Shown here piece by piece: positions 43,321 through 53,426 of a stretch of DNA of 64,000 nucleotides (position 1 is its first letter; every line of letters begins with the position of its first letter). The notes under the pieces are model-generated. The model was not told where the DNA came from, ran no database searches, and saw only the letters and a list, made by a program, of their open reading frames with translations. This stretch comes from Promethearchaeota archaeon (GTDB lineage: Archaea > Asgardarchaeota > Lokiarchaeia > Sigyniarchaeales > SOKP01): positions 1-64,000 of the forward strand of contig JBHLOC010000002.1 of the NCBI GenBank assembly GCA_048940925.1, in the 5' to 3' direction. A program made the translations under genes and the position numbers.

Positions 43321-44653
43321 TTAGAAGTAAATGTTATCAAAAATTATTGTTTCCCTTCTATCTGGACCAATAGAGATCATAGCTATATCTACTTGTAACT
43401 CATCTCTGATGGCTTTAATATAAGTTTTCATAGTGTCAGGTAAAGCCTCATATCCTTTTTCTGCTATTTCTAACCATCTATCTCTACTCTTTTCATCCCA
43501 TCCCTCAAATGATCTATAAACTGGTTTGCATTCTTCTATAATCTCATGCTGAATAGGCCAACTTTCAAGTATTTCTCCGTCTAGCTCATATGCAGTACAC
43601 ATTTTTATAGGATTAATTCCTTGAAGGGCATCTAATAAGGTTATAATCACCTTATCAATCCCATTAATCATTATACCATATTTTATATTAAAGAGATCTA
43701 GCCACCCAACTCTGCGTGGTCTTCCTGTTACTGTCCCATATTCATGACCTTGTTCTCGAATTTTTGTAGCAACATCATTAAACAATTCAGTAGGGAATTT
43801 GCCTTCACCCACTCTAGAAGTATACGCTTTAACTATACCTAGTACTTTATTTATCTTTTTTGGCGGAATTCCTGTTCCAGCAGAAATTCCAAGAGCGTTG
43901 GCATTTGAAGACGTACCAAATGGGTAAAAACCATGATCTATACATAACAGATTACCTTGAGCACCTTCAAACACAATTTTTTTACCACTATCTATAGCTT
44001 TATTCAAGTAATATGCTGTATCGGTCACATATTGTTTAATTTGTTTACCATAAGACTTATATTCTTCATAAATAGAGTCTAAATCGACGTTCCAACTTGG
44101 ATCGTACACATGAATTAAATTCTTCTTTATGTTATACAATTTTTCTAATTTAGGTTTTAACACGTCAGGATTAATCAGATCATATATTCTTAATCCCCAA
44201 CGAGCTGCTTTATCAGAATAAGCTGGTCCAATTCCTCGTTTAGTTGTACCAGCTCTATATTCACCCTTCCATTTTTCTTCCAAACCATCTAAAGTGCGAT
44301 GAAATGGGAAAATCACATGTGCAGTAGAACTTAATTTCAAATTGATCTTTTTATTAAGCCTTTTTAAATTTTCAATTTCTTCAAGAAGAACTTTTGGATC
44401 TATCACACATCCATTCGCAATAACACATTCCTTTTCAAGGGGAGCACCGCTAGGAATTAGCTTGAATTTATATTTTATTCCATTTGCTTTTATCGTGTGA
44501 CCTGCATTATTACCCCCGTTGTATCTTACAACAATATCTGCTTTTTGGGCTAAGTAATCGACGAATTTACCTTTTCCTTCGTATGGGGTTAGTATGCGAT
44601 TTGCTTTGCTAAACTCCCCAACTTAAACCCACAACTGCAATACAATTACTCAT
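43321..44653 (-). CDS. purA: Adenylosuccinate synthetase split by a 31-nt insertion: join(44653..44614, 44582..43321), 433 aa
   Basis: Spliced N-terminus [43 protein letters not shown]; downstream [33 protein letters not shown]; the ORF track shows only the distal 361 aa. Confidence 0.93.
44583..44613 (-). other. Putative BHB/BHL-type mRNA intron in purA (31 nt)
   Basis: GGGG-AG|U-UUAG...CUAA-CCCC-AU|A; cuts after the 2nd nt of each 3-nt bulge give TGG GGA GAC GAA (WGDE). Confidence 0.8.
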
Positions 44654-44878
44654 AAGCCATTTTCCATTTGATATTTTTTTAGAATTACATCATCTTATTT
44701 GATCCAAAAAAGATTATTATAAACAGTTTAAAAAATTTTTGGTAGGAAAGAATAGACATAAAAATGATATGAAATTATTTTTATATCAGAATTTTCTTTA
44801 AAGTTATAACTTTATTTTGATAAGCGATTAATAAAAATAAAATCCCTAAAGAGAAATCTCTTTAAAGATGCGGGAAAT

Positions 44879-45799
44879 ATGCCACAGAAAACAATTTTGT
44901 GTGATCTCTCTCATAATGAAATGTTAAACATAGAAGATGCTGAATTTACTGAATTTTTAAATCTTTTGAAAAGAATGGATATTAAAATCAAGAAAACTGA
45001 GGATGAGCATCTTAAAAAGAATATGTTAAGTGATGTGGATCTCTTAATAATTGGTAATCCAATAGATGATTATTTCTCCAGTCTTGAAGTTAAATACATA
45101 GTTGATTTTGTTAGAAGTGGAGGAGGATTACTTCTTTTAAGTGAATATGGAGCAGATTATCTTCAAAAAACTAATTTAAATGATATTTCAGGAAAATTTG
45201 GGATCCTTTTTGAAAAGAATATAATAAAAGAAACGATTCAGGGGAATCAAAATGGCTCGAGTATATTGCATATAAAAGATTTTTCAAAACATCAACTTAA
45301 TAGACATATTAGAGAAATTGTCATTGGAGGAGCATGTTCTCTAATTTTAAGTAAAAATGCTAAACCTATTTTTCGAATAAGTAAACAAAATGCGTGGTCA
45401 GAAGCATTTGATAGTACTACTGAGAAATGGATTAAAGAAGAAGAAGAAAGAGAACAAATAATAGCTGCATACACAGAATTTGGGCATGGAAAGGTATTAG
45501 CGATTGGAGATATTGATCTTTTCACAGCGGATTCAAATATTGGAATTAACTCCTTGGATAATCAAAAATTTCTGCAAAACGCTATAAATTGGTTAATCGA
45601 ACCAGTAAAAGAACAAAAAGTCATAGCTTTTTTACTTAATCAGTTAGGTGATCTTCAATATGAAATCAGAGAAACCAATAAAGTATTAAATAACATTATT
45701 GAAACTATCACAATATTAGAAAAAAGAATAAGTTATTTAGAAGAAAACTCAAGTTTTCATAAAAAAACTTTAACTACTGAAAAGAATAGCGAACACTAA
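44879..45799 (+). CDS. GIFT/IFT52-GldG-like (DUF4350) domain protein with C-terminal coiled coil
   Basis: 'ILCDLSHNE', 'DLLIIGNP...IVDFVRSGGGLLLL', 'GHGKVLAIGDIDLF...DNQKFLQNAINWL'. Confidence 0.65.
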   Translation: MPQKTILCDLSHNEMLNIEDAEFTEFLNLLKRMDIKIKKTEDEHLKKNMLSDVDLLIIGNPIDDYFSSLEVKYIVDFVRSGGGLLLLSEYGADYLQKTNLNDISGKFGILFEKNIIKETIQGNQNGSSILHIKDFSKHQLNRHIREIVIGGACSLILSKNAKPIFRISKQNAWSEAFDSTTEKWIKEEEEREQIIAAYTEFGHGKVLAIGDIDLFTADSNIGINSLDNQKFLQNAINWLIEPVKEQKVIAFLLNQLGDLQYEIRETNKVLNNIIETITILEKRISYLEENSSFHKKTLTTEKNSEH

Positions 45800-52945: not shown

Positions 52946-53164
52946 TTTTACTTATCTAAATAATATATTTTTTCTTTTTATAAATTAAAAAACCATTAAT
53001 TTCTAATTATTTTTTTTAATCTTGATTTCAATTAAATTATAATTGCTTTTTCCTAACCCTATATCTTAAGCTCAAAAAATATTTTAACACTAATTCATAC
53101 TATTAATATATTAAATAAATAATATAATAGCTTAAAAAAAAAAGAAAAATAGGAAGGTATTTTA

Positions 53165-53426
53165 ATGGCCCGCTGTCCAGAAAGTTTTTTTGTATTAACA
53201 ATTTAACATGGAATGCGGAGGGTTTATGAAATACCATTCAGCTATAAAACAAGTCGTCTGTCAATCATGTGGACTGTCTTTAACGAGACATGAATTAGAT
53301 GGGTATTGGAAAAAGGTGAGGGATGAAAATATTACAGAAGCAGATGATACGCAGCAAAAGAAAAATCGTAGAAAAGAATGGCTTGAATGGTATTCGTCAT
53401 CCAAATCTGATAAGGAGAATTATTAA
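53165..53426 (+). CDS. Small zinc-ribbon protein split by a 31-nt insertion: join(53165..53182, 53214..53426), 76 aa
   Basis: Spliced MARCPECGGFMKYHSAIKQVVCQSCGLSL... restores two CxxC pairs; purine-rich aggaaggt precedes ATG 53165. Confidence 0.8.
53183..53213 (+). other. Putative BHB-type mRNA intron (31 nt)
   Basis: CUGU-CCAG-AA|A-GUU...AAC-AUGG-AA|U-GCGG: outer helix 4 bp, central helix 3 of 4 bp, inner helix 3 bp, two 3-nt bulges. Confidence 0.72.

Follow-up and report, generated by a model that had tools for sequence, protein, structure and literature searches.

The canonical archaeal bulge–helix–bulge (BHB) motif has two 3-nt bulges on opposite strands, set apart by a 4-bp helix and accompanied by flanking helices; HBh′ and BHL are relaxed forms of it. 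The exon sequence just upstream of the 5′ bulge base-pairs with the 3′-terminal part of the intron, and cleavage follows the second nucleotide of each bulge. Among protein-coding genes, the cbf5 pre-mRNA intron was reportedly studied by Watanabe in 2002 and by Yoshinari in 2006. By a count made in 2020, cbf5 was the only coding-gene example, besides one intron in a Haloferax 5′ untranslated region (UTR) (PMC7714728). Here we analyzed a 64-kb window, which is the first 64 kb of contig C41 in a Promethearchaeota metagenome-assembled genome (MAG; G000, 4.8 Mb, 90 contigs, ~30% G+C). Two genes of the window, encoding adenylosuccinate synthetase (purA) and a zinc-ribbon protein, carry short inserts. 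These are very probably archaeal BHB introns in pre-mRNA, and members of a set of at least 17 stereotyped mini-introns of 29–32 nt in G000.

The cbf5 intron of Crenarchaeota (PMC2738675) resembles the present case in that a BHB or relaxed BHB lies in a coding gene and has to be removed to obtain the protein. It is likewise linked to a hetero-oligomeric, broad-specificity EndA, and related species have acquired and lost it. Unlike cbf5, which is one gene in thermophilic Crenarchaeota, the inserts described here occupy at least 16 loci in unrelated genes of mesophilic Promethearchaeota. They also have a stereotyped 30-nt architecture, and their sets differ strongly between congeners (16 versus approximately 4–5 private loci). 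The BHB intron of Haloferax volcanii HVO_1309 was shown in vivo and in vitro to be an EndA substrate in an mRNA (PMC7714728). It is a single case in an untranslated leader and interrupts no reading frame, whereas the hosts here are coding genes. Archaeal tRNA and rRNA BHB introns, including those of Asgard tRNAs (PMC5829648), have the same motif and the same presumed enzymes, but the hosts here are mRNAs.

HAC1/XBP1 splicing, carried out by IRE1 and a tRNA ligase or RtcB, is likewise independent of the spliceosome, restores a reading frame, and relies on joining by a tRNA ligase. Its sites are paired 7-nt stem-loops cut by IRE1 under stress regulation. HAC1/XBP1-type sites were not matched here, where the predicted sites lie in the 3-nt bulges of a BHB and not in hairpin loops (IRE1 was not searched for). 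A switch of the HAC1/XBP1 kind had been proposed for this DNA on sequence grounds; there is no evidence either way, and nothing indicates regulation. The same sequence-only reading knew of no description of such introns in Asgard mRNAs, and in the searchable full-text literature we did not find Asgard mRNAs reported to contain BHB introns. In a preprint on heavily interrupted Asgard tRNA genes (bioRxiv 10.64898/2026.10.13.758758), the word mRNA is absent, and protein-coding genes are mentioned once, as neighbours of tRNA loci.

Geometry and conservation of the two window inserts

The segments of the two genes are as follows.

43321–44582, minus strand: purA exon 2, from the last two bases of the Asp codon through EGKGK... 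to the stop codon (43321–43323)
44583–44613, minus strand: putative purA BHB mini-intron, 31 nt; BHB score 4,0,4, single register
44614–44653, minus strand: purA exon 1, 40 nt; ATG at 44653–44651, ending with the first base of the Asp codon
53165–53182, plus strand: zinc-ribbon exon 1 (MARCPE), 18 nt
53183–53213, plus strand: putative zinc-ribbon BHB mini-intron, 31 nt; BHB score 3,4,3
53214–53426, plus strand: zinc-ribbon exon 2 (CGGFMKYHS...), with the stop codon at 53424–53426

The first gene, purA, lies on the minus strand (PF00709, E = 7e-155), and residues 1–412 of its product align to profile positions 10–416. The insert brings in an in-frame stop (GTT TAG), and excision of 44613–44583 restores the P-loop GDEGKGK. 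This junction is unique, having one possible register and no alternative. In the proposed structure, exon GGGG (44619–44616) pairs with CCCC at the 3′ end of the intron (44588–44585), which yields a central helix H of 4 bp. The bulges are AG|U (44615–44613) and AU|A (44584–44582), and the inner helix consists of 4 bp (UUAG:CUAA, 44612–44609 with 44592–44589). The UACUAAC present in the purA insert falls in the 3′ strand of this inner helix and is not kept in the other introns.

The second gene encodes a 76-aa zinc-ribbon protein on the plus strand, with its ATG at 53165. Its insert carries an in-frame TAA. Excision gives MARCPE|CGG, by which the first CxxC is restored (CPECG). Four boundary registers lead to the same product, and the BHB register picks 53183–53213. 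This motif has an outer helix of 4 bp (CUGU:GCGG, 53173–53176 with 53215–53218), a central helix H with three of four positions paired (CCA(G):(A)UGG, 53177–53180 with 53208–53211), and an inner helix of 3 bp (GUU:AAC, 53184–53186 with 53205–53207). The bulges are AA|A (53181–53183) and AA|U (53212–53214).

The geometry of the window inserts was read by hand and then scored by the BHB rule. For both genes, the canonical BHB cuts coincide exactly with the in-frame junction. The sequence-only reading had described two 31-nt inserts that contain a stop, break the frame and lack GT-AG ends. The description proved correct in every particular, and its claim that BHB geometry predicts the correct junction was borne out in purA and in the zinc-ribbon gene.

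Two other intron classes were rejected. A spliceosomal intron does not fit the ends of the inserts, which are UU..AU in purA and AG..AA in the zinc-ribbon gene; GT..AG ends were seen in neither window insert. For a group II intron, a length of 29–32 nt is far too short to hold the ribozyme.

The 3′ end of the zinc-ribbon insert supplies an ATG (53208) that is in frame with exon 2. Owing to this ATG, open reading frame (ORF) callers give a 72-aa protein (53208–53426), which lacks half of the first zinc knuckle. The ATG is not found in the zinc-ribbon introns of the ten congeners other than G018.

At the identical position in purA, an insert of 30–31 nt was found in 10 of the 22 congeneric genomes that have the gene, and the remaining 12 read WGD|EGKGK without interruption. 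A comparison across the order did not find the purA insert in other genera. The intron-bearing purA genes of the 10 congeners are open and 75–88% identical, with zero stops in exon 2. Synonymous replacements occur in their exon 1 (GCA/GCC, GGT/GGC, Leu TTA/CTT, Ser AGT/TCG), and exon 1 is therefore translated in that frame. A scan of species-representative genomes showed the purA intron in 15 of approximately 69 Promethearchaeota loci. For the zinc-ribbon gene, 12 of 23 congeners have an insert of 28, 29 or 31 nt at the same codon, and 11 of 23 have none. The uninterrupted alleles of 11 congeners, and those of other genera, begin with exactly the sequence of the MARCPE exon. Judging from their recurrence in diverged form in independent assemblies, and from the uninterrupted alleles of other genomes, both inserts are real genomic sequence.

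The proposed pairs were compared with controls in which the 3′ partner was slid by 1–3 columns. For purA, 98% of the cells were paired, as against 21–50% in the slid registers; for the zinc-ribbon gene, the values were 86.5% and 27–39%. Two purA pairs show compensatory change, and compensatory changes were seen in the inner helices. Sixteen purA introns from a broader sample all retain the central helix and differ in their inner helices (TTAG:CTAA, ATAGT:ACTAT, TTAAT:GTTAA, TAAAAT:ATTTTA). The alignments thus suggest a structure kept by compensatory substitutions, with a modest signal, as many pairs do not vary and the genomes are those of related species.

The two introns are distributed differently across species. 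Of G019 and G002, well-supported sisters in the PurA tree, one has the purA intron and the other does not. Taken together, this difference and the unlike distributions point to repeated gain or precise loss.

Census of inserts in the genome and in the order

We carried out a motif-free census, in which ORFs of a single-contig congener (G006) were aligned to G000 by tblastn. The comparison used 2.54 of the 3.34 Mb (76%) of G006. The census total is a lower bound, since introns common to G000 and G006 and genes in the remaining 24% of G006 are missed. The histogram of insertion lengths has a spike at exactly 10 codons, with 22 insertions, 15 of which contain in-frame stops. Insertions of 9 codons numbered eight (two with stops), and those of 11 codons five (none with stops). 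On the coding strand there were 12 inserts of 10 codons at 11 unique loci, with the following hosts.

30-nt insert in EF-2, just before DEEQERGITI
30-nt insert in aIF2-gamma, inside the P-loop
30-nt insert in a Ras-family GTPase, after DIAGQ
30-nt insert in acetyl-CoA synthetase, on two duplicate contigs (C17 5106–5135 and C57 77604–77633)
30-nt insert in a GH38 mannosidase
30-nt insert in a Glycos_transf_3 phosphorylase
30-nt insert in an AIRS-family protein
30-nt insert in an MBL-fold protein
30-nt insert in an amidohydrolase
30-nt insert in a 4Fe-4S protein, the same one that carries a 32-nt frameshifting insert
30-nt insert in CobA/BtuR, inside GKGKT

For the BHB test of these inserts, the junctions were fixed by protein homology alone. 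Nine of the 12 sense-strand inserts passed the BHB rule, as compared with 1 of 480 shifted registers and 0 of 4 antisense copies. The sequence-only reading had proposed a comparison of insertion sites with controls for BHB geometry, and a strong enrichment was found at sites defined without the motif.

Frameshifting inserts were sought by extending the matches upstream through a hypothetical gap of 12–120 nt, in comparison with decoy queries. This extension gave 23 matches above the best decoy. Frameshifting inserts of 29–32 nt were found in the 4Fe-4S protein (32 nt), a hexapeptide-repeat protein (31 nt), a DUF6125 protein (29 nt) and the zinc-ribbon gene of the window. The BHB rule held for all five frameshifting inserts, comprising these four census cases and purA.

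In total, G000 has at least 17 inserts at 16 unique loci, with lengths of 29–32 nt and a mode of 30 nt. The prediction of many more cases genome-wide was therefore right in kind, with at least 17 inserts in 4.8 Mb, and too high in rate: the density is about 0.4% of genes and not 2 in ~55. Two inserts in one 64-kb window are a chance cluster and not the genomic rate. Two further generalizations from the window did not hold. A length of 31 nt is not typical, and a position within the first 40 nt is peculiar to the two window introns, which are the only ones near a 5′ end. The other 15 can fall at any point of a gene, and their first exons measure 88, 259, 342 nt and more. As the 30-nt mode keeps the frame, most inserts would not be annotated as frameshifts.

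The 30-nt inserts share a stereotyped fold, which consists of 1 nt, a 9-bp stem, a 5-nt loop and then 6 nt. They are located on C32, C43, C64, C30, C54 and other contigs, and their loops are often UUUUC-, AAAUC- or AAGUC-like. The acetyl-CoA synthetase segment has the same intron on C17 and C57, one of which may be a duplicate or second-strain contig. Many inserts lie inside ligand-binding motifs, namely the P-loops of purA, aIF2-gamma and CobA/BtuR and the DIAGQ of the Ras-family protein. Further sites are the Cys motifs of the iron–sulfur (FeS) and zinc-ribbon proteins and the GHFGH of RNA polymerase.

The RNA polymerase site is that of a 65-nt frameshifting insert in subunit A′ (C62, forward coordinates 7927–7991, minus strand), located between GHFGH and IKLARPV. 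G006 is without this insert. Its 3′ half is BHB-like (hairpin GGGCG/CGCCC, 4 nt, bulge), and its 5′ half misfits the rule. This insert is possibly an intron of a longer or branched type.

In the reverse direction, G006 was found to have approximately 4–5 private inserts in other genes (one of 28 nt and three or four of 30 nt). A scan for BHB motifs at homologous positions of G000 and G006 was swamped by conserved coding sequence and antisense ORFs; introns common to both genomes are therefore uncounted. One false positive of this shared-intron scan was a G+C-rich hairpin of ~29 nt (CGGCG...CGCCG) on C64 near 25881, plus strand, conserved between G000 and G006.

To examine the scope, we searched 101 genomes of the order with aIF2-gamma. 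Many genera of the family to which the window belongs have a match that is split at the P-loop into two pieces 14–30 nt apart, or that contains in-frame stops. In the other three families, which include three single-contig genomes, the match continues across the P-loop and is free of stops. The phenomenon appears, on present evidence, to be family-wide, and the scope "Asgard" given to it by the sequence-only reading is too broad: at the sites tested, inserts were confined to one family of the order.

Candidate machinery and competing explanations

Two EndA-domain genes, encoding proteins of 198 and 200 aa, were found in G000, together with RtcB. The best PDB matches of the first EndA paralogue are chains 3p1z_B and 3ajv_B, taken here as the crenarchaeal catalytic subunit, from the heterotetrameric enzyme of Aeropyrum. 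Inspected by eye and without an alignment, this paralogue has Tyr, His and Lys in catalytic-triad-like stretches, and the second paralogue is divergent and lacks the Tyr and His. EndA of the (alpha-beta)2 or epsilon2 type is able to cut relaxed motifs beyond tRNAs. Asgard EndA is described as an (alpha-beta)2 type with an L1 loop, which is linked to broad specificity (PMC5829648). The enzymes expected for tRNA-type splicing are thus encoded, in the form of two EndA paralogues and RtcB; their broad-specificity type is taken over from that study. Aragorn called 34 tRNA genes in G000, 22 of them with introns (9–89 nt), which fits the heavily interrupted Asgard tRNA genes of the preprint cited above. 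The tRNA set is probably under-called owing to non-canonical introns.

The following mechanism is proposed. After transcription, the last four bases of the upstream exon before the bulge would pair with four bases near the 3′ end of the intron to form the central helix. The intron body would fold as a hairpin, typically with a 9-bp stem and a 5-nt loop, and two 3-nt bulges would result. A heteromeric splicing endonuclease, made up of a catalytic and a structural EndA paralogue, would cut after the second base of each bulge. RtcB would join the exons and would probably also circularize the intron. Only after splicing could purA, the zinc-ribbon protein, EF-2, aIF2-gamma and the other hosts be translated in full.

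The inserts might also be removed by machinery other than EndA and RtcB, for instance by an unknown nuclease–ligase pair that processes a mobile hairpin element, or by excision at the DNA level. The relaxed form of some motifs and the 65-nt RNA polymerase A′ insert, which has no clear 5′ BHB half, would suit such a process. We regard it as improbable. The geometry is exactly that of an EndA substrate, with cuts after base 2 of 3-nt bulges lying 4 bp apart, and it is enriched only in the correct register and strand. The cbf5 intron, moreover, provides a precedent for the use of EndA (PMC2738675; PMC7714728).

In programmed translational bypassing, the insert would stay in the mRNA and the ribosome would hop over the hairpin, as in phage T4 gene 60 and the "byp" elements of Magnusiomyces mitochondria. 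In its favour, the inserts described here are short hairpins within coding genes, and a stop codon often follows closely on the upstream exon. Hopping requires matching take-off and landing triplets, which entails a boundary ambiguity of at least 3 nt. Six inserts (purA, GH38, AIRS, aIF2-gamma, Ras and amidohydrolase), however, have a single register. Nor does bypassing call for the feature that is conserved here, a pairing of exon end and intron end with 3-nt bulges, and we consider it very unlikely.

Even less credible is decay, by which the interrupted genes would be pseudogenes or degenerating alleles created by small insertions, or tolerance, by which in-frame inserts would be kept as extra peptide. 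Both window genes are indeed broken if unspliced, and the contamination of the MAG is 8.4%. The hosts, however, include the single-copy essential genes purA, EF-2 and aIF2-gamma, which are open and conserved in many intron-bearing species, and the inserts are constrained in length (29–32 nt) and in structure. Of the 22 inserts of 10 codons, 15 contain stops, and many of the inserts in the genome lie inside P-loops or Cys motifs. An assembly or sequencing artefact, which the common k-mer length of 31 could call to mind, is practically negligible, as the same sites are occupied in 10–15 independently assembled genomes from different studies by inserts that differ in sequence, show compensatory changes and range from 28 to 32 nt.

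Several observations weigh against the reading of the inserts as BHB introns. The purA motif has no outer exon–exon helix and is a relaxed, HBh′-like form, and the zinc-ribbon intron has one central-helix mismatch in every species. Three of the 12 sense-strand 30-nt inserts fail the BHB rule. The minimum free energy (MFE) z-scores of the 52–81-nt stretches around the window inserts were no better than those of shuffles. Because these z-scores are not significant, the support consists of the exact register and the comparative data. A de novo scan for BHB motifs combined with ORF fusion gave thousands of matches, with no excess over junctions shifted by 1–4 nt, and its threshold missed even purA. 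This implies that the BHB criteria are permissive and that the motif alone is too weak to find introns. The heterotetramer and the L1 loop are assigned to G000 by reference to PMC5829648, and the roles of the two EndA subunits are putative. Finally, cleavage and ligation in vivo are deduced from genomic sequence.

Possible mobility and significance

It is possible, though we put it forward tentatively, that the BHB introns of G000 belong to an active mobile family of 30-nt mini-introns, which enter and leave coding genes in one family of Promethearchaeota. Hints of mobility are the uniform length and fold and the difference between sister species at purA. The two congeners have no common locus among the 16 and approximately 4–5 private ones, in a comparison that is blind to shared loci. 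A further hint is the exact 14-mer AGCAAATCGCATAC, which is common to the purA intron (44583–44613) and the FeS intron on C29 (33396–33427). It sits in the hairpin loops of the purA intron and the 32-nt 4Fe-4S intron, the helices of which differ. Its 13-mer core GCAAATCGCATAC has exact copies in G000 only in these two introns. When up to two mismatches were allowed in the search for GCAAATCGCATAC, the mismatched matches looked like chance.

We also applied a longest-common-substring test to 20 introns. In 200 shuffles, the longest match averaged 8.9 and reached at most 15, which places the 14-mer close to the upper limit; 19 intron pairs shared at least 7 bases, versus 12 expected. This result is suggestive only; the 14-mer found in both the purA and the FeS intron is a hint of shared origin or of mobility. 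A use of splicing efficiency to tune expression is a further, purely speculative possibility.

For annotation, the inserts have a direct effect. Being mostly 30 nt and in frame, or located beside the start codon, they lead to truncated, "frameshifted" or insertion-bearing proteins. In these MAGs, the misannotated proteins are often altered in catalytic motifs.

What is new is that one Asgard genome would need splicing by tRNA enzymes for at least 16 loci, including EF-2, aIF2-gamma and purA. If the mobile family is real, it would represent a spliceosome-independent invasion of mRNAs by introns, including core translation and transcription genes, and this invasion would be taking place in the prokaryotic lineage closest to eukaryotes. 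If RNA data confirm the splicing, a relative of the eukaryotic ancestor would depend on mRNA splicing as a regular and indispensable part of expressing its genes, and these genomes would offer a testable model for the colonization of coding genes by introns without a spliceosome.

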